Below are positions 7,082 through 59,643 of a DNA stretch of 63,250 bases, piece by piece. Position 1 is the stretch's first letter; every line of letters starts with the position of its first letter. The position numbers and the translations under genes are program-made. Location: positions 1 to 63,250 of the IMG/VR virus record IMGVR_UViG_3300048905_000034. One strand, written 5' to 3'. The DNA comes from a virus. The notes beneath the pieces are model-generated. The model made no database searches. It was not told the origin of the DNA and saw only the letters and a program-made list of their open reading frames with translations.

Positions 7082-7453
7082 TTAGCGCGTACCGCCGAAG
7101 TAGGGCTTGGCCAGCCCCTCCTCGATCAGGACCTCATCGAGCCAGCGCCCGTCGGGGAGCAGGATGCGCACCAGCCACCGCTTGTACTTGTCCTCGGGCC
7201 GGGGCTTGTACGTCTGGACCCTCACCGGCTTGCCGACCGGGCAAAGTTCCGCAGAGCGGGCCTTGGCTTCGCTGTAGTTCGTGTCCCCCCGCTCGGGGGT
7301 GTCGCAGCCCCAGATGCGGAACTCCAGCAGGTGCCGGGCGGTGGTGAAGACCCGGAAGCCGTTGTCCATTTCCTTCTCGACCCACATCCAGTCGGTGTCC
7401 CCGTCCACCCAGCGCTGCGGGATGCCGAGGTAGTCCCATCCGGCCTCAGTCAT
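7082..7453 (-). CDS. staphylococcal (micrococcal) nuclease-like thermonuclease
   Basis: DGDT...FRIWGCDTPERGD...RW motifs of the SNase fold; RBS GAGGGGGAG. Confidence 0.75.
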   Translation of the reverse strand: MTEAGWDYLGIPQRWVDGDTDWMWVEKEMDNGFRVFTTARHLLEFRIWGCDTPERGDTNYSEAKARSAELCPVGKPVRVQTYKPRPEDKYKRWLVRILLPDGRWLDEVLIEEGLAKPYFGGTR

Positions 7454-7608
7454 GACTCCCCCTCGATGACCTTGGCGACGATGTCGATGATGGCCTCAGC
7501 CTCAGCCAGATTGGGGTCGCTGCACAGCGGGGAGCAGTCGCAGGGGTAGTTGAGTCGCAGGAACCCGGCTACGCGGGAGATGGCCTGCTCGCGCTGGCGC
7601 TCATTCAC
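7450..7608 (-). CDS. hypothetical protein, 52 aa
   Basis: GTG 7608; coding-like frame ...RQREQAISRVAGFLRLNYPCDCSPLC...; the stop overlaps ATG 7453. Confidence 0.4.
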   Translation of the reverse strand: MNERQREQAISRVAGFLRLNYPCDCSPLCSDPNLAEAEAIIDIVAKVIEGES

Positions 7609-8423: not shown

Positions 8424-8630
8424 TTATTGGAGAAACAGGCCCCGTTTTGTCCCGTCCTTTTCGACGATGGTGAAGGTGGCCCCCCGTTCTTGGGCCTCAT
8501 AGAGGTGGAGAAACAGTCGGACCCCCCGCCTGACCAGTTCGGTGAGGGTCGCCCCGGTGGATTCGGAGTGCCCGTCCATGGCCACTTTGAGGTCGGTCGG
8601 GATGTTGATGGTCAATCGGTGAAGTGTCAT
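8424..8630 (-). CDS. ribbon-helix-helix (CopG/Arc/MetJ-type) DNA-binding protein; first gene of the leftward arm
   Basis: LTINIPTDLKVAMDGHSESTGATLTELVRRGV is a beta-strand followed by two helices, typical of RHH. Confidence 0.75.
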   Translation of the reverse strand: MTLHRLTINIPTDLKVAMDGHSESTGATLTELVRRGVRLFLHLYEAQERGATFTIVEKDGTKRGLFLQ

Positions 8631-8665: not shown

Positions 8666-8672
8666 CCACGTG

Positions 8673-8695
8673 GCAGTTGGTCGGGCAGTTGGTCG
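8673..8695. repeat. two tandem (direct) PAL20 half-sites
   Basis: gcagttggtcg g gcagttggtcg, 12-bp register, 8 bp upstream of the -35 of the leftward promoter. Confidence 0.85.
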
Positions 8696-8809
8696 AGGGT
8701 TTCCGTCATACGGATTCGATCCCAAAAGGAACTTGGATAGCGGGACGGGCAGCGTTACAGGAAGCGAAAAAATCGGGCGTTGCGGGGGGGTGCGGGGCCT
8801 CACCGGAAA

Positions 8810-8826
8810 TCAACCGATTTAGGTTG
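8810..8826. repeat. 17-bp repeat, copy 1 (TCAACCGATTTAGGTTG)
   Basis: Internal dyad CAACC-N6-GGTTG; an identical copy lies at 8889-8905. Confidence 0.85.
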
Positions 8827-8888: not shown

Positions 8889-8905
8889 TCAACCGATTTA
8901 GGTTG
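8889..8905. repeat. 17-bp repeat, copy 2 (TCAACCGATTTAGGTTG)
   Basis: Identical to 8810-8826; followed by a further GATTTAGG. Confidence 0.85.
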
Positions 8906-9017
8906 ATTTAGGGCCACTTTTATAACGATATGGTAACGAAACCCTTCCTAACTCTTGACATTCCTACCCGCACACTGTGTTCTGACTCTGCGGGCAATTC
9001 CTGCCCAGCAACCGGCG

Positions 9018-9056: not shown

Positions 9057-9839
9057 GTGGCTACCAACACCAGCACCAGCAACACCAGCACAACCGCCGT
9101 AGTCGTACCCGCAAGCGCGGAAGCGGCACTGATCGAATCGAACGCGCTGGAAGCGCTCAAGCAGGCATACAAGCACCAGCAGGCGGAATTGACCCAGCAC
9201 GAGGACATCCGCAAGCAGGCGGAAGCGGCGAAGCAGACAGCCGCCGTGTGGATGGCGCGTATCGCCCACAGGGTAGCGACTCACCCGGCAGTTGCCACCA
9301 GTCGTTACCCGTACAACATCACGGGCGCGGCGAAGGCTTTGGATGTGCCTATCTCCACGTTCCGCCCGTATGCCCTTGCGGGTGAGGTGTTGGGGCGGAA
9401 GGATCGCGCCGGACTCCTGTCTGTTCCCGCGCTGGAAGACATCACCATTGTTGAAAAGTCTTTCGACGCAACGACTCGTGCGGAGCAGAAGGCTAAGCGC
9501 GTGAAGGCGGCCGCAAAGCAGGCACAGTTGGAAGCGAAGGCGAAGGAACTGGAAGCGCTGAAGGCGAAGCAGGGCGGCACTCCTGCCGCTCCTGCGGGTA
9601 CTCCTGCCGCTCCTGCTGGCGCTCCTGCCACTGCGGGTACTCCTGCCACTGCTGGCGCTCCTGCTGGCGCTCCTGCCGCTCCTGCCGGACCGTCCGTAAC
9701 GGATGACATCCTGCGGACCGCGCGGGAACTGGTGAAGATGTCGAAAGCACAGCGCGCTAACGACAAGCAGGCATGGGCGAAGACGCACGGCGAACTGGTG
9801 AAGGTGCTTGTCGAACTGTTCCCCGGGCTGAAGGTCTAG
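9057..9839 (+). CDS. first rightward gene: HTH-containing protein with coiled-coil and Pro/Ala tandem repeats, 260 aa
   Basis: GTG 9057 after AGGAGAACAAA; N-terminus VATN encoded by ggctaccaac; YNITGAAKALDVPISTFRPY is HTH-like. Confidence 0.65.
   Translation: MATNTSTSNTSTTAVVVPASAEAALIESNALEALKQAYKHQQAELTQHEDIRKQAEAAKQTAAVWMARIAHRVATHPAVATSRYPYNITGAAKALDVPISTFRPYALAGEVLGRKDRAGLLSVPALEDITIVEKSFDATTRAEQKAKRVKAAAKQAQLEAKAKELEALKAKQGGTPAAPAGTPAAPAGAPATAGTPATAGAPAGAPAAPAGPSVTDDILRTARELVKMSKAQRANDKQAWAKTHGELVKVLVELFPGLKV
9577..9688 (+). repeat. in-frame tandem repeats encoding (GTPAAPA / GAPATA)n
   Basis: Reiterated actcctgccgctcctgc / gctcctgccactgc units read directly. Confidence 0.8.
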
Positions 9840-10513: not shown

Positions 10514-10524
10514 GGCTACCAACC
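10514..10524 (+). repeat. GGCTACCAACC leader motif
   Basis: ggctaccaaccgaaagaag then ATG 10539. Confidence 0.8.
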
Positions 10525-11002: not shown

Positions 11003-11206
11003 ATGCAGTGGATCGAAGCTACCCCGGCATATGGCCGCGACTACACCAACCAGAAGGCGGTACTCGCCGACTGGATGGCGGACAAGGACTTCGTGGAAAC
11101 CACCACGCGGTCCTATGTGAACCGCTCGCAGGCGCAACGGATGGGCCTGTCGGTCATCATCCGATACGACAAGAACCGCAAGGTCATGGACGTCTCCAAG
11201 AAGTAA
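11003..11206 (+). CDS. hypothetical protein, 67 aa
   Basis: ATG 11003 after GGGAAGTAGGGAAC; MQWIEATPAYGRDY... Confidence 0.6.
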   Translation: MQWIEATPAYGRDYTNQKAVLADWMADKDFVETTTRSYVNRSQAQRMGLSVIIRYDKNRKVMDVSKK

Positions 11207-11208
11207 CC

Positions 11209-11219
11209 GGCTACCAACC
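11209..11219 (+). repeat. GGCTACCAACC motif
   Basis: 3 nt after stop 11206, 8 nt before PAL20. Confidence 0.8.
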
Positions 11220-11227
11220 CACGGCCA

Positions 11228-11247
11228 GCAGTTGGGCGACCAACTGC
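11228..11247. repeat. PAL20 copy, G-variant, helix extended to 26 bp
   Basis: ccagcagttgggcgaccaactgctgg (11225-11250). Confidence 0.9.
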
Positions 11248-11268
11248 TGGCCACCGAAAGGAACCATC

Positions 11269-11662: not shown

Positions 11663-11857
11663 ATGGCTACCAACCGAACCCCCAAGCCCGCCACCCCCAA
11701 GCCCGCCGACCTGCCCCTGCCCGTCGTACCCGGCGACGCATGGGTCACGGCCCTGACCCAGCCCGCACCGCCTGAGCGCTTCCTCTGGTGCGACGAGTGC
11801 CACTACTGGCACGCCGAGGTCAACGAGTGCGCCTACACCAGCCGGGTAGGTCTGTGA
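11663..11857 (+). CDS. hypothetical protein, 64 aa (MATN N-terminus)
   Basis: RBS GAAGGAA; the start overlaps ggctaccaacc (11665-11675). Confidence 0.65.
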   Translation: MATNRTPKPATPKPADLPLPVVPGDAWVTALTQPAPPERFLWCDECHYWHAEVNECAYTSRVGL

Positions 11858-12446: not shown

Positions 12447-12731
12447 ATGTCCGTCTCACTCATCAAGGCCAAGGCCATAGCCCGTACCCCGGAGGCATAC
12501 AGCACCGAGGAACTGGACGACGCGCTGACCCGCATCGTCGAGGATGACCGCCTCTCGGAGGCGCAGGTCACCCGCATGCAGGCGAGGATCGACCCGGTCC
12601 TGCGTGCCCGTATCGCCCAGCGCCAGTCACGCATAGCATCAGCCGTAGTGTGGCCGGACATTCCCCGGTCACCCGCAGTTGGGCGACCAACTGCCGAGTC
12701 ATGCGAACAGAGGATACCCAGTGACCATTGA
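12447..12731 (+). CDS. hypothetical protein, 94 aa
   Basis: Track ORF; RBS GGGGAA; its 3' end reads PAL20 as AVGRPTA. Confidence 0.6.
   Translation: MSVSLIKAKAIARTPEAYSTEELDDALTRIVEDDRLSEAQVTRMQARIDPVLRARIAQRQSRIASAVVWPDIPRSPAVGRPTAESCEQRIPSDH
12675..12694. repeat. PAL20 copy, G-variant
   Basis: gcagttgggcgaccaactgc; 27 nt before GTG 12721. Confidence 0.9.
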
Positions 12732-12903
12732 ATACGGCGCACGCCTTCCCCGTTCCGGCGTCGTCTACATGAAAAGCGCAGACCTCCCCGTCGTGCAGGT
12801 GTGGCTGGAGGAGTTCTCCAGCGTCACCCCACTAGAGCTAGTGGTGCGGGAATGTTCGGAACTGAGTAAGGGTCACTGGGTCGCCGTCGCCACGGCCCCA
12901 TAA
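12721..12903 (+). CDS. hypothetical protein, 60 aa
   Basis: GTG after AGAGGA; in frame with the track ORF 12679. Confidence 0.5.
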   Translation: MTIEYGARLPRSGVVYMKSADLPVVQVWLEEFSSVTPLELVVRECSELSKGHWVAVATAP

Positions 12904-12907
12904 AGCC

Positions 12908-12953
12908 GGGTGCAGGTGAGGTCTTTCGGTTGGTAGCCCCCTCGCCTGCACCC
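12908..12953 (+). terminator. terminator-like hairpin with the conserved loop TTTCGGTTGGTAGCC
   Basis: 14-bp stem gggtgcaggtgagg / cctcgcctgcaccc (one G-U), 18-nt loop, then cttcacgttt. Confidence 0.65.
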
Positions 12954-12963
12954 CTTCACGTTT

Positions 12964-12989
12964 GGCTACCAACCACCCGGCTACCAACC
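12964..12989 (+). repeat. two tandem GGCTACCAACC motifs
   Basis: 12964-12974 and 12979-12989; exact complement of the hairpin loop at 12928-12938; followed by GAAGGAG and ATG 13004. Confidence 0.85.
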
Positions 12990-13003
12990 CGAAGGAGCAC
13001 ATC

Positions 13004-13330
13004 ATGGAATGGAACGAACAACTGGCCAAGGCCAAGGCCAACGGCAGGGAGTACGCGGACAACGGCATTGCCGGTGGCGAGAAGTCACCCGCCGAGTCGC
13101 CGCTGTCAGGGGAATGGGCGGGTGCGCTCACCCCACGGGACGTGGTCAACATGGCCGCTGGCGATGGCGCGTACGACAACGCGCAGGAGTTCGAGGTCAC
13201 GGACCTGTGCGACGCATGGGAGGACGGCTACCTGTCCGCGTCATGGCCCGAGCCTGCGGGTGAGGTGTGCGAGCACGGCATGTCCGCTTCGCTGTGCGGC
13301 GGACCGATGCACTGGTACGACCATGGCTGA
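13004..13330 (+). CDS. hypothetical acidic protein, 108 aa
   Basis: ATG 13004, RBS GAAGGAG 7 nt upstream. Confidence 0.65.
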   Translation: MEWNEQLAKAKANGREYADNGIAGGEKSPAESPLSGEWAGALTPRDVVNMAAGDGAYDNAQEFEVTDLCDAWEDGYLSASWPEPAGEVCEHGMSASLCGGPMHWYDHG

Positions 13331-13565: not shown

Positions 13566-13595
13566 TTGACAAGAGTGGTCAAGTCGTGATAGAAT
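13566..13595 (+). promoter_or_regulatory. SigA-type promoter
   Basis: TTGACA - 18 nt - TAGAAT; ATGCCCT box at 13614, PAL20 at 13631. Confidence 0.7.
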
Positions 13596-13630
13596 TAGAG
13601 TAGCGGGGGAAGTATGCCCTCGTACGGCCA

Positions 13631-13650
13631 GCAGTTGGGCGACCAACTGC
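13631..13650. repeat. PAL20 copy, G-variant, helix extended to 28 bp
   Basis: gccagcagttgggcgaccaactgctggc (13627-13654). Confidence 0.9.
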
Positions 13651-13657
13651 TGGCACC

Positions 13658-13668
13658 GGCTACCAACC
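13658..13668 (+). repeat. GGCTACCAACC motif
   Basis: ggctaccaaccgaataggaaac then ATG 13686. Confidence 0.8.
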
Positions 13669-15614: not shown

Positions 15615-16244
15615 ATGGCTACCAACCCAACCGCCGCCTCCAACACGTGGCTCAGTGACATCGTCACCGCAATGCGCCACCTCGGAGGGCAGGCAACCCT
15701 CAGCGAACTGTACGACGAGTTGATCCAGATGCGGCTGAACCTTCCCGACTCATGGAAGGAGGTCATCAGCCGGGTCATCCAGAACCATTCGTCGGACGCC
15801 AGCGATTTCAACCCGAGCTTCACCGACCTGTTCTACTCAGTGAGTGGCCTCGGCGCTGGGCGCTGGGGATTGCGGGGGGTCACCCCGGACAACCCTGCTA
15901 TCCCCTTCGTCGTCCACTATGCGCTGGACCTAGAGTCACCGCCCCTCATTGCATGCGAGGCACCGGACCCGATCAAGTGGTCGGCCAAGGCCAGCGAGGT
16001 CACATGCCGGGACTGCATGACACATGAGCAGTTCCCCCAGTCGGCACGGAAGGTGGAGGACATCACCGAACCGCCCACCATCACGGCAAACGACGTGCTC
16101 AGGGTGGCGGCGGACCTGATCGTCGATGCCAACTACGACTACACCAAGGCCATCGTCGCCATGACCAGCGAACTGCTTGGCGCTGGTCACGGCGACACCA
16201 TCCTCATGACCCGCATCCTGCGGTCACTGGCACAGGGAGATTGA
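15615..16244 (+). CDS. winged-helix (HARE-HTH / Mrr-N-like) domain protein, 209 aa
   Basis: N-terminus ...AMRHLGGQATLSELYDELIQ...W..VISRVIQNHSSD...GRWGLR; the start overlaps ggctaccaacc (15617-15627). Confidence 0.5.
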   Translation: MATNPTAASNTWLSDIVTAMRHLGGQATLSELYDELIQMRLNLPDSWKEVISRVIQNHSSDASDFNPSFTDLFYSVSGLGAGRWGLRGVTPDNPAIPFVVHYALDLESPPLIACEAPDPIKWSAKASEVTCRDCMTHEQFPQSARKVEDITEPPTITANDVLRVAADLIVDANYDYTKAIVAMTSELLGAGHGDTILMTRILRSLAQGD

Positions 16245-22563: not shown

Positions 22564-22592
22564 TTGACAAACTACCTAATTCTTGATATAAT
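22564..22592 (+). promoter_or_regulatory. consensus SigA/sigma70 promoter
   Basis: TTGACA - 17 nt - TATAAT; ATGCCCT box at 22613, PAL20 at 22632. Confidence 0.8.
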
Positions 22593-22631: not shown

Positions 22632-22651
22632 ACAGTTGGTCGACCAACTGC
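22632..22651. repeat. PAL20 copy (1 mismatch)
   Basis: acagttggtcgaccaactgc. Confidence 0.85.
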
Positions 22652-22660
22652 GGCACAAGA

Positions 22661-22954
22661 ATGGAGCACGGCATGACTCAGCACGTCGCCTACCGATGGA
22701 ACGGCAACGTCTACTGCGAAGACGACATCGTGGCAGAACTCACCCACCACTTCCCATGGCTTGCATGGGTGGAGGTCGGCAACCAGCCCGCGATGGATGA
22801 CGCCGAAGCGGAACTCAATGACATCGCTCATCTGTTCCACATCGACCGCACGGCACCACGTCAGGTGGCAGCCGTCGGCTTCCCCGAGTACGTGGGCGAA
22901 CACCCGGGCTTCTGCTCGTGGTGCAAGCGCTGGTTCAACAGCGACGACCACTAG
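22661..22954 (+). CDS. hypothetical protein, 97 aa (alternative start 22673)
   Basis: ATG 22673 has GGAG 7 nt upstream; C-terminal CSWC. Confidence 0.6.
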   Translation: MEHGMTQHVAYRWNGNVYCEDDIVAELTHHFPWLAWVEVGNQPAMDDAEAELNDIAHLFHIDRTAPRQVAAVGFPEYVGEHPGFCSWCKRWFNSDDH

Positions 22955-22976
22955 CTACCAACCGAAGGAAACAATC

Positions 22977-23503: not shown

Positions 23504-23737
23504 ATGCCCTCGCTGCCACCGCTGCGCTGGAGGTTCGGGGCCAAGCGCTTCGGCACCTCCAGCGTGGCGCTCTCGGTGGACGGTCACGACATCGTCCACA
23601 TTTCAGAGATTGACGGTAACGGCAACGCCTTCGTCATCGTCTACAAGTCATCGCACCCTGATTCTCCGGTGCTGTTCAGCGGACGCATCAACATCAACGC
23701 CCACAAGGAGGGCCATGACGCGCTACAAAATCACTGA
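23504..23737 (+). CDS. hypothetical protein, 77 aa
   Basis: Track ORF, abuts the previous stop. Confidence 0.55.
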   Translation: MPSLPPLRWRFGAKRFGTSSVALSVDGHDIVHISEIDGNGNAFVIVYKSSHPDSPVLFSGRININAHKEGHDALQNH

Positions 23738-24023
23738 GTACAAGGACGGCGATCCCACGACTGAACGGGTCATCGAGGGCGCACCGAAGGACGTGCTGGA
23801 AGTCTTCTCTGCACTGATAACGGGCCTCGCCACGACTACCACCCGGGCGGCGACGTGCATCGCAGACGCGGAGAAGTCCCTGCCCCAACTCCCCATCGGT
23901 GCTGGCATCACTGCCATACCGAACGGCACACACTGCATCACCATCCACCGGCTGGTCGAGGGCATCAAGAACAGCCCGGTGCCTGCGCAGTGGCGTAACT
24001 CCGCAATGGGCACGCGCCCGTAG
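23715..24023 (+). CDS. hypothetical protein, 102 aa
   Basis: ATG after AGGAGGGCC. Confidence 0.6.
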   Translation: MTRYKITEYKDGDPTTERVIEGAPKDVLEVFSALITGLATTTTRAATCIADAEKSLPQLPIGAGITAIPNGTHCITIHRLVEGIKNSPVPAQWRNSAMGTRP

Positions 24024-24067
24024 CGCATCAAGCTCCGGCGAGACAGGTCTGTCTCGCTGGGATAGAG

Positions 24068-24118
24068 GTCCGTGCAGGGGAGATTTCGGTTGGTAGCCGT
24101 CCCTGCACGGACTTTTTT
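24068..24118 (+). terminator. canonical intrinsic terminator with the conserved loop TTTCGGTTGGTAGCC
   Basis: 12-bp stem gtccgtgcaggg / ccctgcacggac, then TTTTTT. Confidence 0.85.
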
Positions 24119-24538: not shown

Positions 24539-25069
24539 ATGGCTTTACCTACCACCTTCGGAGAGTTCCGAGTAGTCGGTGATCCGAAGTTGAACTACAC
24601 AAAGGACGGCGGCATCCCCGTCGCCAACGTTCGGCTTGTGTGTAACGCACGCAGGAAGGACGCTCAGGGCGGATGGGAGGATGACCCCGACAAAGTTCTG
24701 TGGGCCAATGCCACCCTTTGGCGCAAGCCTGCGGAGAACTTGGTGAACTCCGTCCGCGATAAGGACCTCGTCCATGTCGTCGGCACCTTCTATGAGCGCC
24801 ACTTCGAGCACCAAGGCGTGAAGCGTACGTCCATTGAGATTGATGCGGTCAGCATCAGCCCCTCCCTGACGTTCCGCGCCACTCCCCACAGTGACCAACA
24901 GCAGGGCGCACAGCCCGCGCAGGGCGCACCGCAGGGACCGGCGGGGGGCTGGCCGAACAGCCAGCCGCAGGCTCCGTACGGACAGCCACAGAGCCAGCCA
25001 GCCTACGCCCAGCAGGGCGGACAGCAGGGTGGATGGCCTGAGCAGCCGTACCAGCAACCCCCGTTCTAA
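24539..25069 (+). CDS. ssb: single-stranded DNA-binding protein
   Basis: OB-fold N-terminal pattern, Gln/Gly/Pro-rich linker, C-terminal ...QQPPF tail. Confidence 0.85.
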   Translation: MALPTTFGEFRVVGDPKLNYTKDGGIPVANVRLVCNARRKDAQGGWEDDPDKVLWANATLWRKPAENLVNSVRDKDLVHVVGTFYERHFEHQGVKRTSIEIDAVSISPSLTFRATPHSDQQQGAQPAQGAPQGPAGGWPNSQPQAPYGQPQSQPAYAQQGGQQGGWPEQPYQQPPF

Positions 25070-25129: not shown

Positions 25130-25405
25130 ATGACGACTGAGACGCTTGAAGCAACCGCCGCTACGACCGGGGAAGGCGTAGAGGAAAACCTTCAGCAGAG
25201 GAAGAACCGCCTGCGCAATGAGGCCGAGCGCGAAGTCCTCAACAAGCACCGCGACGAACTGAACCAGATCACGGAGGCGAAGTTCGTGGAGCAGGGCCTG
25301 CCCTACACCCGCCGCCTGACGGAGCGTGAGAAGGCGCAGAAGAAGATCGAGGAAGTGCTCAACGAGCATCCCGAACTGCGCGAGGTGTACTCTGCCCAGC
25401 AGTAG
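25130..25405 (+). CDS. hypothetical coiled-coil protein, 91 aa
   Basis: RBS GTAGGAGAC. Confidence 0.65.
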   Translation: MTTETLEATAATTGEGVEENLQQRKNRLRNEAEREVLNKHRDELNQITEAKFVEQGLPYTRRLTEREKAQKKIEEVLNEHPELREVYSAQQ

Positions 25406-25414
25406 CCGGACATG

Positions 25415-25447
25415 ACGAAGGCCCCGTGTTTTAGACGGGGCCTTCGT
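25415..25447 (+). terminator. terminator-like hairpin
   Basis: acgaaggccccgt - gttttag - acggggccttcgt (13-bp stem); no 3' T-tract. Confidence 0.6.
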
Positions 25448-25461
25448 GCTCGGAACAACTT

Positions 25462-25472
25462 GGCTACCAACC
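25462..25472 (+). repeat. GGCTACCAACC motif
   Basis: 15 nt after the hairpin, in the 210-bp non-coding gap. Confidence 0.8.
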
Positions 25473-25660
25473 CTGAATGAACCGAATTTACCAGCAGTTC
25501 GTAGGAGCAAGGCTCACTAGAGGATCTTTCCGGTACTCCTAATTGTACCGGTTTTGCACAGCATTAGTACAACAGGAGGACACTTTGCAAGACACCACAG
25601 ATGCCCTATGGGGGGCACATCTGATGGCCAGCTACTACATGCACATGGGTGCGTGACTAG

Positions 25661-26413
25661 GTGTCATGGTTCAAGGTAGACGACCGGCTTCATTCGTCCC
25701 GCAAGCTCCTGAAAATCCCCCGCCGGTACCGGCTGGCATGCCTCGGCCTGTGGACAATGGCCGGGTCATGGAGTGCCGATCAGGAGACGGACGGGCACAT
25801 CCCCGACCACATGATCGAGGAGTGGGGAGCCTCCAAAACCCAAGTCGAATGGCTACTGAAGTCAGGTTTGTGGGAGTCCATCCCCGACGAAGATCAAAGT
25901 TACCCGGGGGTAACCGAGGCCGAAGTCCGATTTAGAAATTGGGCCGAGTACCAGCCCACGAAGGCAAAGAATGAACATACCCGAGAGAAAAACCGCGAGA
26001 AGCTGCGGCATTGGAGGGAACGTAACCGGGTTACAGATGAAGATGTAACCGGGTTACAGGATGGTTCGGACCCGGTTAGTAACCCCGCCCCCGTCCCGTC
26101 CCGTCCCGACCCGTCCCGTCCCGTCCATAAAGACTCGTCCAAAACGGACGAGGAGTTCGACCAGTGGTACTCCGGCTACCCCAAGAAGGAAGCCAAGGCT
26201 GCTGCGAAGAAAGCTTTCGCCACAGCGCGGAAGAATGTGGACTTTGATACACTTATGGCTGGGCTTGAGAGGTATGTGAAGTCAGTGAAGGGCAAAGACC
26301 GGCAGTACATCGCACTCCCTGCGTCATGGCTGAATGCCGGACGTTGGGAAGATGAGTTGGTCGCCCAACTGCCGGGGCCAAAGAATGACCCGTACTGGTG
26401 GGCTAACCAGTGA
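25661..26413 (+). CDS. replication initiator / replisome-organizer-like protein (DnaD-like C-terminus)
   Basis: GTG start; 250 aa; directly upstream of and overlapping the helicase gene; C-terminal KKAF..A...........PASWLNAGRWED pattern. Confidence 0.6.
   Translation: MSWFKVDDRLHSSRKLLKIPRRYRLACLGLWTMAGSWSADQETDGHIPDHMIEEWGASKTQVEWLLKSGLWESIPDEDQSYPGVTEAEVRFRNWAEYQPTKAKNEHTREKNREKLRHWRERNRVTDEDVTGLQDGSDPVSNPAPVPSRPDPSRPVHKDSSKTDEEFDQWYSGYPKKEAKAAAKKAFATARKNVDFDTLMAGLERYVKSVKGKDRQYIALPASWLNAGRWEDELVAQLPGPKNDPYWWANQ
25899..26084. repeat. cluster of GTAAC/GTTAC dyads inside the initiator gene (candidate origin)
   Basis: gttacccgggggtaac 25899-25914; gtaaccgggttac 26022-26034 and 26045-26057; ggttagtaacc 26074-26084; then (GTCCC)n 26092-26126. 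Confidence 0.55.
26353..26372. repeat. PAL20 copy, opposite-polarity (C) variant, degenerate
   Basis: tgagttggtcgcccaactgc; in the CDS, read as ELVAQL; 38 nt before GTG 26410. Confidence 0.75.
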
Positions 26414-33971: not shown

Positions 33972-34211
33972 ATGCAGACCCGATTGAAGTTCACCCGCCT
34001 CGGTATCCCCGGGATGGGCAAGCCCAATGACGTAATCCTGAAGGGCAACGCCGACGACGACACAATCATCGCGGCGATCAAGGAGGTAGGCCGTCCCCGG
34101 CATGCCACGTCCAACATCCGCCTCGTCAAGAATGCAGGGCATATGACCCTTGCGTTCTACGTCGATGGCGGGAAGCTTGGCGAAGGAACAATACAGAGAG
34201 AATGGCCATGA
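33972..34211 (+). CDS. hypothetical protein, 79 aa
   Basis: RBS GAAAGAGAAG. Confidence 0.55.
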   Translation: MQTRLKFTRLGIPGMGKPNDVILKGNADDDTIIAAIKEVGRPRHATSNIRLVKNAGHMTLAFYVDGGKLGEGTIQREWP

Positions 34212-34477
34212 CAGAGCTACCAACCCCCGAGCACATCACATACGAATGGATCGAGCGCGAGTCGCAGCTGTTGTCCTGCCGCGCCACCATTGACCGGACA
34301 CGACTGCAGGCATGGATCGACAGGCAGCCTGCTTTCACCATCAAGCCCGAGGAACTCGACGCCGATGACATCGCGGATTACCTCGATACCCACCCCGAGG
34401 ACTCCCTCAGTATTCGGCGGTTGCCCGGGGACGAGGTCTTGATCGAACCCTTCAACGCCAAAGTAGTCCAGCCGTGA
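34202..34477 (+). CDS. hypothetical acidic protein, 91 aa
   Basis: Track ORF. Confidence 0.55.
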   Translation: MAMTELPTPEHITYEWIERESQLLSCRATIDRTRLQAWIDRQPAFTIKPEELDADDIADYLDTHPEDSLSIRRLPGDEVLIEPFNAKVVQP

Positions 34478-51152: not shown

Positions 51153-51172
51153 GCAGTTGGTCGACCAACTGC
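51153..51172. repeat. PAL20 copy, perfect
   Basis: Intergenic; 16 nt before the RBS of the chaperone gene. Confidence 0.95.
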
Positions 51173-58545: not shown

Positions 58546-59643
58546 TTAGATTCCGACGAGGATCGCCGCTGCAAAACATTCCACGGTTGCCACGTAGGTG
58601 GCTTCCGCGAGGGCGTAGGTCCGGTTGGCTTTGATGTCCTTGGCGCTGTATTCCTCGATAGGTCCCCGCCAGATGTTGACCTGTCCGGTGATATACAGCC
58701 ACCCCGCAGTGGCACCAGCGGTCCTTGAGTTAGGACCGGCAGTGCCGTACCCGCCGCCATTGGCGACAGGCGTTCCGTGGATCGTCTGCAGGACCCCGCC
58801 GTCCCCGACCACAAGGTCAGGGAGGATCAGCGTGGTGGCCAGACGGTTCCCGTGGATCAGCGGAAGCCCCGAGTAGTTGTTCGCAGCGTGCTGCTCCAGC
58901 AGTCCGAGGGCGTAGCGCAGGTTGGTGACCGGCGTTCCCGGTGTGGGCGTGAGGTCGGTTGCAACGGGGTTCAGGAGAAGCTCCTGAATCTTGGCTTCCA
59001 CCCCGTAGCTCTCGTTGGCCTTGTACGCCCGGATCGCCTCCGCTGCCGAGTTGTCATTGACGAGCAGGTCGTCCTCAACACCCCGGTAGAGCGAAAACGG
59101 GCTGGCCGTAACCACGGTCTGCTTGTCAAAGACCTTGTCAGCCGCAGGCGTGTTGCCCGCTGTGCTGGTGGCAGGCACCGTCGCAGCGGTACCGGCACTG
59201 CCGGTATCCGTGTACGTCAGGACCTGTCCCAGTGTGGCGACGAGGACGTTCTGCGCATTCGAGGCGGTTCCCCGGTAGACCTTGTACCGCTCTGCTCCGG
59301 CGACCGCCGTCCAGTTCAGTACCTGCGTGCCATTGGCAGCAATGGCTACGTTGACTTGGTTGGAGCCGACCGTTTCGCCATAGCCGGTAACAGCCGTGAC
59401 CTTCCAGTAGTACGTCGCAGCAGCGAACGTACCCCCGGAGGTTGCGGTTGTGCCGGTAGAAAGAGTCGGCGGGGCAAGTGCTCCGCCGACAGCAGGAACA
59501 ACGCGGTTCTTTCCGCACAGGTACGTCTCATACGCCAGTCCGTTGTAGAGAACGCCGCCTGCGCCGTCAGTTTCCGTGAGGGACACGACCGACAGCAAAC
59601 CACCCTTTGCTGGTGCAAGCGGTGGTGCTTCGATAATTCTCAT
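58546..59643 (-). CDS. second capsid-like structural protein with an inserted FN3-like domain, 365 aa
   Basis: YYWKVTAVTGYGETV...LNWTAVAGAERYKVYRG is FN3-like; the flanks look HK97-fold-like to me (weak). Confidence 0.4.
   Translation of the reverse strand: MRIIEAPPLAPAKGGLLSVVSLTETDGAGGVLYNGLAYETYLCGKNRVVPAVGGALAPPTLSTGTTATSGGTFAAATYYWKVTAVTGYGETVGSNQVNVAIAANGTQVLNWTAVAGAERYKVYRGTASNAQNVLVATLGQVLTYTDTGSAGTAATVPATSTAGNTPAADKVFDKQTVVTASPFSLYRGVEDDLLVNDNSAAEAIRAYKANESYGVEAKIQELLLNPVATDLTPTPGTPVTNLRYALGLLEQHAANNYSGLPLIHGNRLATTLILPDLVVGDGGVLQTIHGTPVANGGGYGTAGPNSRTAGATAGWLYITGQVNIWRGPIEEYSAKDIKANRTYALAEATYVATVECFAAAILVGI

Follow-up and report, generated by a model that had tools for sequence, protein, structure and literature searches.

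The hairpin at positions 12908-12953 of this phage genome carries in its loop the exact complement of a short motif lying just downstream. The question that the locus raises is whether this complementarity serves a private structure in front of the next gene or something that the phage uses more widely. The DNA analysed, referred to here as the window, is a complete metagenomic phage contig of 63,250 bp, whose minus strand encodes the structural genes and whose plus strand carries a long arm made up of small genes. A preliminary description of the locus had proposed a terminator whose loop pairs with two leader motifs in an H-type pseudoknot, or acts as a riboregulator, so coupling termination or read-through to translation of the following gene.

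Much of that description could be read directly from the letters. The hairpin (module 1, plus strand) starts 5 nt past the stop codon of gene 12721-12903 and has a GC-rich stem in which GGGTGCAGGTGAGG (12908-12921) pairs with CCTCGCCTGCACCC (12940-12953) over 14 bp, including one G.T pair (T12917-G12944, i.e. G.U in the transcript). Its 18-nt loop (12922-12939, TCTTTCGGTTGGTAGCCC) displays the antisense motif GGTTGGTAGCC at 12928-12938. The complementary sense motif GGCTACCAACC follows on the plus strand as a tandem, at 12964-12974 and 12979-12989 (15 nt from copy to copy), and the second copy lies 1 nt from the Shine-Dalgarno sequence (SD) GAAGGAG (12991-12997) of gene 13004-13330, as had been claimed. 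This gene begins with ATG at 13004 and encodes a product of 108 aa, which has 48 homologues in metagenomes and no family match. Two of the original terms proved too strong: 'terminator' is unproven, as CCCCTTCACGTTT rather than a U-tract comes after the stem, and 'leader motifs' is too narrow, as copies of GGCTACCAACC are not confined to gene 13004 but are dispersed at other gene starts.

RNAfold predicted the module 1 hairpin at -28.5 kcal/mol, dominant in the ensemble, and in nested folds of the region the loop and the sense motifs stay unpaired. The 11-bp duplex between loop and motif comes to -20.0 kcal/mol, and nested folds that include it are at most ~4 kcal/mol above the minimum free energy; pairing is thermodynamically feasible. 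The antisense 11-mer is itself partly self-complementary (GGUU GGU AGCC) and may close to a triloop. Within it, in both of its copies in the window (12928-12938 and 24088-24098), GUUGGUAG matches what we take to be a common tRNA D-loop sequence; ARAGORN found no tRNA in the window. Together with its 5' flank the module 1 antisense copy, i.e. TCTTTCGGTTGGTAGCC, is complementary to 17 nt of the leader at 10514, and this extension of the complementarity beyond 11 nt (up to 17 nt in the window) is not conserved in relatives.

The motif at early gene starts and a second hairpin

The sequence GGCTACCAACC has ten exact matches in the window, eight on the plus strand and two on the minus strand; allowing up to 2 mismatches raises the number to 51, where 18 would be expected. 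The complementarity is neither a chance event nor private to the module 1 site. Eleven sense copies with 0-1 mismatch were found in the early arm; all sense copies are in this plus-strand arm, and any match in the late arm differs from the motif at 2 or more positions. In most of the sense copies the motif either opens on the third base of a start codon or precedes a start by 12-18 nt. The first register is occupied by the copies at 9059-9069 (GGCTACCAACA, from the GTG start of the first early gene), 11665-11675 (ATG 11663) and 15617-15627 (ATG 15615). In the second register 12-18 nt separate the end of the motif from the start, and the SD follows the motif directly; this register is occupied by the copy at 12979 together with those at 10514-10524 (14 nt upstream of ATG 10539), 13658-13668 (17 nt upstream of ATG 13686) and 22953-22963 (AGCTACCAACC, 13 nt upstream of GTG 22977). 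Three further plus-strand copies lie at 11209-11219, 2 nt past the stop of gene 11003-11206 and upstream of a palindrome at 11232; at 34215-34225 (AGCTACCAACC), 13 nt inside gene 34202-34477; and at 25462-25472, 16 nt after a hairpin at 25415-25447 and upstream of the replication-initiator gene 25661-26413. The last of these copies is kept in six related contigs (L092-L095, L105 and L106), where its context, a 256-nt non-coding spacer (25405-25660) containing both the hairpin and the sense 11-mer, is also strongly conserved.

Reversed copies follow a different rule. The window holds only two, and both are in hairpin loops: the module 1 copy and a second one at 24088-24098 (plus strand, GGTTGGTAGCC), in the loop of a canonical intrinsic terminator at 24068-24118. 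This second hairpin (module 2) has a stem formed by 24068-24079 and 24101-24112, a loop of 19-21 nt and a run of TTTTTT at 24113-24118, and 24068-24112 folds at about -30 kcal/mol. It ends the unit that contains the sense copy at 22953, and is preceded, in the 3' UTR of gene 23715-24023, by another plus-strand hairpin (hairpin A, 24035-24060), which is present in all relatives with differing sequences. As loops of hairpins with stems of at least 10 bp cover only 0.5% of the 11-nt positions in the window, the placement of two out of two reversed copies in such loops has p ~3e-5. Over 10 non-redundant loci the orientation rule is strict: alongside 64 sense copies there are 11 antisense copies, and 11/11 are in the two hairpin loops. 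Of the sense copies, 50/64 have their first base at the third position of a start-type triplet or lie 12-25 nt ahead of a start.

The sense motifs are predicted to be more accessible (0.61) than matched control positions (~0.45; p = 0.001), a difference that may merely mirror their CA-rich composition. Substitutions in sense copies that would be compatible with wobble pairing and substitutions that would not are roughly equal in number. Two other roles for the motif were considered. A promoter reading was rejected: the final T that is conserved in -10 hexamers is missing from TACCAA, and numerous copies are downstream of the start codon. Against 16S rRNA and tRNA D-loops, in the sequences that we assume for them, the best matches of the motif are 6-8 nt long and fall inside structured regions.

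Conservation in relatives

Syntenic contigs were collected via homologues of gene 13004 and of the SSB gene 24539-25069. Megablast and blastn searches with the region found no close DNA relatives among GenBank phages, and the capsid is only about 60% identical to Arthrobacter phage capsids. The module 1 unit, i.e. the loop and its downstream complement, is kept in 7 relatives even where the flanking genes differ, and in all relatives of the main lineage the order is palindrome, CCCATAGACC, hairpin with loop (G/C)GTTGGTAGCC, 9-13 nt, GGCTACCAACC, SD, ATG. The copy corresponding to 12979 is the one kept in all relatives, at 2-11 nt from their SD; the same tandem as in the window is found in L067. 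Homologous module 1 hairpins (L059, L060, L062, L064, L067 and L088) show one compensatory and one one-sided change. Module 2 was found in L092-L095, upstream of the gene preceding SSB and with its loop motif invariant; in its stem one pair occurs in three standard types (GC, UA and CG) and two pairs vary with a G.U on the sense strand. The stems of both hairpins thus vary by compensation and by G.U, never A.C, while the loop 11-mer does not vary. Because the changes are compensatory and the wobbles are G.U only, both hairpins are under selection as sense-strand RNA.

The helix between loop and motif behaves differently. Nine of its pairs are invariant, and the two varying pairs only break pairing: the uncompensated variants are the loop CGTTGG.. 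in L062 and L088 and the leader GGCTACCACCC in L059 and L060. This covariation test is of low power because the motif is constrained elsewhere.

A second locus, in L105 and L106 of another sub-lineage, repeats the cis order of antisense-loop hairpin, 9-13 nt, sense motif, SD and ATG. Here a hairpin of the module 2 type, with no T-run, is followed after 13 nt by a degenerate sense motif, the SD and ATG. The loop of L106 is AGTTGGTAGCC and that of L105 has drifted to AGGGGGTAGCC; in the target there is a C3-to-U change, with which pairing is retained as G.U. In the same sub-lineage L058 and L089 depart from the pattern in another way: their dispersed palindrome differs, their 11-mers are few, and at the module 1 position they have a hairpin with unrelated stem sequences and a 17-nt loop in which the motif stands in the sense orientation.

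When all hairpins with the motif in their loop are sorted by what follows them, four have a U-tract and no downstream motif (window module 2 and L092-L094), ten have no U-tract and the motif 9-13 nt downstream (module 1 in 7 genomes, L105, L106 and L068), one has both (L070) and one has neither (L095). L070 and L068 have no protein homology to the window and count merely as possible independent instances. The unrelated contig L070 has a GC of 0.51, bacterial genes and a low-GC island; at 7440-7545 on its minus strand, ATGGCTACCAACC opens an 11-codon mini-ORF, followed by a terminator with loop GGTTGGTAGCC, TTTTTAT, and GGCTACCAACC abutting an ATG.

Searches further afield returned hairpins of another kind. 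In six high-GC metagenome contigs (L071, L073, L075, L076, L079 and L080) GGTTGGTAGCC and GGCTACCAACC form the basal stem of repeated hairpins with a variable 25-26-nt insert that contains a small hairpin of its own; there are several per contig, in the manner of REP elements, and a scan of reference genomes found no counterpart of them. A gapped 22-base pattern, run against metagenome and reference-genome collections, matched besides the relatives unrelated long palindromes (in Planctomycetota, Chloroflexota and other MAGs) at about the chance rate. It gave no Arthrobacter or other host element, and a REP-like origin from the host was rejected. A 15-mer scan of viral contigs gave 48 matches, consistent with chance, which were left out of the results.

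These comparisons bear on the reading of the locus as a pseudoknot acting only in cis, in which the loop at 12908-12953 pairs with one downstream copy, couples termination or read-through to translation of gene 13004 and has no other role. Its strengths are the favourable energetics of the loop-motif contact (-20.0 kcal/mol for the duplex), the retention of the arrangement in 7 relatives and of the tandem copy in L067, and its recurrence at the second locus (L105 and L106) and in L070. However, 5 genomes retain the loop in module 2 and have no sense copy for about 100 nt around it, so a private pseudoknot is not the general function of the loop; about nine further sense copies at other gene starts are left unexplained, and the loop-motif helix shows no covariation. 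Geometry also counts against it. In L062, L064 and L088 the hairpin loops measure 13-14 nt, the motif being flanked by 1 nt on its 5' side and 1-2 nt on its 3' side, and the first pseudoknot loop would be just 1 nt, so a full 11-bp helix with the stem closed would be sterically implausible, judging by pseudoknot geometry; a shorter contact of 6-8 bp between loop and motif is possible in these three. As for termination, the module 1 hairpin is without a U-tract in all 7 relatives, which makes the proposed coupling to termination or read-through doubtful, and the motif, being transcribed after the hairpin, cannot serve as an antiterminator. We consider this reading improbable as a complete account. 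What survives of the original pseudoknot or riboregulator proposal is the complementarity itself, which is real and conserved; the riboregulator part is still the leading reading, because the cis unit is kept in 7 relatives and recurs at the L105/L106 locus and in L070.

The conservation data also bear on the idea that the motif acts alone, as a translational enhancer, a standby site, a site for an RNA-binding protein or the ribosome, or a junction for cassette recombination, the copies in loops being incidental or e.g. a decoy. The motif is CA-rich, accessible and within the ribosome footprint, and module 1 does move as a cassette between differing flanking genes, all of which would suit such a role. 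The idea does not explain why two hairpin loops hold invariant exact reverse complements of the motif across relatives while the stems change, and Rfam offers no matching element (none at the gathering score over the whole window, nor at E up to 10 around both modules). We would be surprised if it were the main explanation.

Pairing between RNAs or a site on DNA

The best reading of the locus, in our view, is antisense pairing between RNAs, in cis and possibly also in trans, to which we would give slightly less than an even chance. It starts from the 11-nt motif GGCUACCAACC, which some ten early mRNAs carry in their initiation regions, where it occupies either +3 to +13 of the coding sequence or the stretch immediately 5' of the SD, and from the exact complement displayed in the loops of two stable stem-loops transcribed from the same strand (12908-12953 and 24068-24112). 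Loop and motif would pair, probably nucleating over 6-8 bp in the manner of kissing or loop-linear antisense complexes. On read-through transcripts the module 1 loop would pair in cis with the copy abutting the SD of gene 13004; in trans, the loops might reach other early mRNAs that bear the motif, once 3' ends or processing products containing the hairpins have built up. As the paired region would be within the ribosome footprint, initiation would be lowered, and the outcome could be a delayed shut-down, or a tuning, of the early genes. We infer here the pairing in vivo, the direction of its effect and any action in trans. In this scheme module 1 would be one of two conserved copies of a candidate RNA-level antisense device of this phage lineage, a proposition that we hold to be nearly as probable as its contrary.

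Antisense pairing fits most of the data: it accounts for the orientation rule, the display of the motif in loops, the RNA character of the hairpins, the two start registers and the recurring cis unit. Against it stand the lack of covariation between loop and motif and the drift of the loop in L105. Nor does simple antisense control predict the sense-oriented loop in L058 and L089, which would need loop-loop kissing with module 2.

The principal alternative is that GGCTACCAACC is an asymmetric operator for a DNA-binding protein of the phage, oriented with transcription as the stoperators of Cluster A mycobacteriophages are. The reversed copies would then be the same site flipped, which would render the complementarity trivial; if loop and motif are both copies of one DNA site, their complementarity is expected just as much as it is under antisense pairing. 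A corollary is that a protein bound 9-13 bp downstream of a hairpin with no U-tract could stall RNA polymerase and so give roadblock-assisted termination. We regard this alternative as possible, not probable.

Several observations are as the operator reading would have them. The motif is strongly biased towards the orientation of transcription and located at gene boundaries, as has been described for stoperators (PMC9283540), and it is found in a loop in either orientation. The hairpins divide between those with a U-tract and no motif (window module 2 and L092-L094) and those with the motif and no U-tract (module 1 in 7 genomes, L105, L106 and L068); if the motifs are DNA sites, this 'U-tract or downstream site' pattern points to roadblock-assisted termination. 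The motif is invariant while the 20-bp palindromes of the same genomes diverge, as a conserved protein partner would bring about. These palindromes mix half-site variants with no compensation, in the style of protein sites, and a gene for a ribbon-helix-helix-like protein adjoins direct repeats of the half-site; since the palindromes behave like DNA half-sites, DNA-binding regulators are in play here.

However, the operator reading offers no reason for 11/11 reversed copies being in loops of hairpins that have the marks of sense-strand RNA. The two tight start registers (exactly +3, or 12-18 nt upstream beside the SD) suggest translation over transcription. Inverted copies are spaced 33-39 bp apart (48 bp in L068) and hence show no helical phasing. 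Pfam and PHROGs gave no immunity repressor, stoperator-domain protein or integrase; the search for repressor and integrase families covered 73 window proteins, and many small early proteins match nothing, so that an unrecognised binder may be among them. Candidates for such a binder would be these small proteins, the ribbon-helix-helix-like product of 8424-8630, a zinc-finger protein and an Lsr2-like protein.

The motif at the starts of about ten early genes, with its only reversed copies in two conserved hairpin loops, suggests a built-in antisense control of early-gene translation. Whichever reading is preferred, the feature is real and conserved, and is part of a genome-wide system hitherto undescribed for this lineage. 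Antisense pairing and a DNA site could be told apart by a compensatory loop/motif design, for which an example of a loop variant is the change of GGTTGGTAGCC to GGTAGCTAGCC.

Known systems and neighbouring elements

Mechanistically, the closest analogues of the proposed device are the c4 RNA of P1/P7 and the CI RNA of P4, in each of which a stem-loop RNA comes from the transcript that it regulates. In c4, Citron and Schuster reportedly described in 1990, the loops are complementary to short repeated targets in the same transcript, one of them at a downstream ribosome-binding site, and pairing blocks translation. The loop studied here likewise has its complements in the same transcript, one of them at a downstream initiation region. 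The differences are that Rfam, at E values as high as 10, gives no similarity in sequence or structure, that the phage here is a lytic-looking actinobacteriophage with no immunity region, that about ten target genes would be involved as against one operon, and that one of the hairpins is also an intrinsic terminator. The general role of c4 and of P4 CI as phage antisense RNAs is documented (PMC8198154).

Descriptively, the closest analogue is the start-associated sequence (SAS, with ESAS) of Cluster K mycobacteriophages, a short asymmetric motif found nearly always in the sense orientation at the starts of 13-19 genes, often after an inverted repeat (PMC3203893; PMC11373665). Its function was still given as unknown in the 2024 Adephagia paper. 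The window motif is an analogue and not a member of this class: SAS is a 13-bp GGGATAGGAGCCC-type sequence that contains the SD and lies 3-9 nt upstream of starts, whereas the window motif stands beside the SD or in the first codons, the sequences differ and the SAS phages are unrelated to the window phage. In Adephagia we counted 16 sense SAS copies and a single reversed one, which is at the tip of a conserved hairpin. This reversed SAS lies at about 58631-58685 of JF704105 (about 8732-8786 of our excerpt L097), in a composite hairpin with loop CCUCCUAUCC within the unannotated spacer between gp92 and gp93. The region of this hairpin is conserved in 142 phages, and its arms covary; within Cluster K the anti-SAS loop has become degenerate in certain subclusters, as seen in Ekdilam (9 of 13), Shandong1 and ShedlockHolmes. 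Co-evolution of the anti-SAS loop with SAS was not seen in Ekdilam, whose SAS is unchanged, and the parallel, which is one of analogy, is suggestive only.

Two further classes share part of the pattern. Stoperators of Cluster A mycobacteriophages are asymmetric 13-mers of which at least 20 copies occupy short intergenic spaces, their orientation being tied to transcription (PMC9283540), and the motif described here is also an asymmetric site in many copies that is oriented with transcription. Stoperators, however, are sites on DNA to which a monomeric immunity repressor binds in temperate phages, and no protein of this kind (HTH plus stoperator domain) was found in the window; they have no reported rule of reversed copies in hairpin loops and no fixed register relative to the start codon. 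With intrinsic terminators both modules share a GC-rich stem-loop at a gene end. The U-tract immediately 3' of the stem is present in module 2, which has the full signature including the T-run, and in L092-L094, but is absent from module 1. Unlike those of ordinary terminators, the loops here reach an unusual length (13-21 nt) and contain a conserved sequence that terminators do not need.

Dispersed start-associated motifs are common in actinobacteriophage genomes. A tentative and rather doubtful generalization is that such sequences are target tags for phage-encoded antisense hairpin loops, which would act on the next gene in cis and on the others in trans. If this were true, a lytic phage would tag its early-gene regulon with one short motif within the ribosome footprint and steer it by one or two loops of terminator or 3'-UTR hairpins, the reversed SAS hairpin of Adephagia-like Cluster K phages would follow the same principle, and there would be a mechanism for a class of motif whose role has stood open since 2011. 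The present comparison gave a simple, checkable rule: the motif is always sense at initiation regions, and the only reversed copies are in the loops of conserved RNA hairpins. Were RNA pairing to underlie the rule, a lytic phage would have a compact means of timing a set of early genes with no dedicated repressor, and antisense control of the P1 c4 type would be widened from one operon to a regulon.

The window has other dispersed elements. A 20-bp palindrome, GCAGTTGG(T/G)CG(A/C)CCAACTGC, occurs 30 times against 0.87 expected (e.g. at 12675-12694, 13627-13654, 11224-11251, 22632-22651 and 51153-51172), and on both strands most copies precede start codons by 15-50 nt. Its arms mix AGTTGG, AGATGG, AGGTGG and AGACGG with no compensation, as half-sites for a protein would; at 95 sites in relatives its centre reads GCGA on the sense strand in 40 cases and TCGC in 10, and the stems change to TATCGG in L058 and to TGTTGG in L089. 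A 68-aa ORF on the minus strand at 8424-8630, beside a divergent control region, is ribbon-helix-helix-like on the basis of a weak RHH_1 Pfam match of its homologues in relatives. Immediately upstream of it, at 8672-8695, the palindrome half-site stands twice in direct repeat (CAGTTGGTCGGG CAGTTGGTCGAG), and there is a promoter-like site at 8665-8637; the product of the ORF is a candidate regulator of the palindrome family.

One window protein matched PHROG 645 'Rnase E' (E = 1e-19), a match that may reflect low complexity; the gene behind it was not located in two follow-up scans of 20 proteins. In the Arthrobacter phage AWGoat (L057, PP978859 25000-65496) a start-associated hairpin of its own, GGGGGTCGG-N4-CCGA(C/T)CCCC, is present in about 28 copies 10-20 nt upstream of the SD, with a freely variable 4-nt centre. 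The imperfect arm CCGATCCCC is found in 11 copies on the sense strand against 2 on the antisense strand, and as this arm gives G.U on the transcript and A.C on the other strand, the bias suggests a hairpin at the RNA level.

Two near-consensus promoters of the sigma-70 type, with extended -10 elements, were seen in the window at 13566-13595 (TTGACA-18-TAGAAT) and 22564-22592 (TTGACA-17-TATAAT). Each is about 35-40 nt upstream of a copy of the palindrome, which would therefore be in the 5' leader of the transcript. Finally, direct repeats of TCAACCGATTTAGGTTG at 8810-8826 and 8889-8905, in the 850-bp divergent region between the two arms and upstream of a TTGACA at 8953-8958, may represent an origin or a control element.
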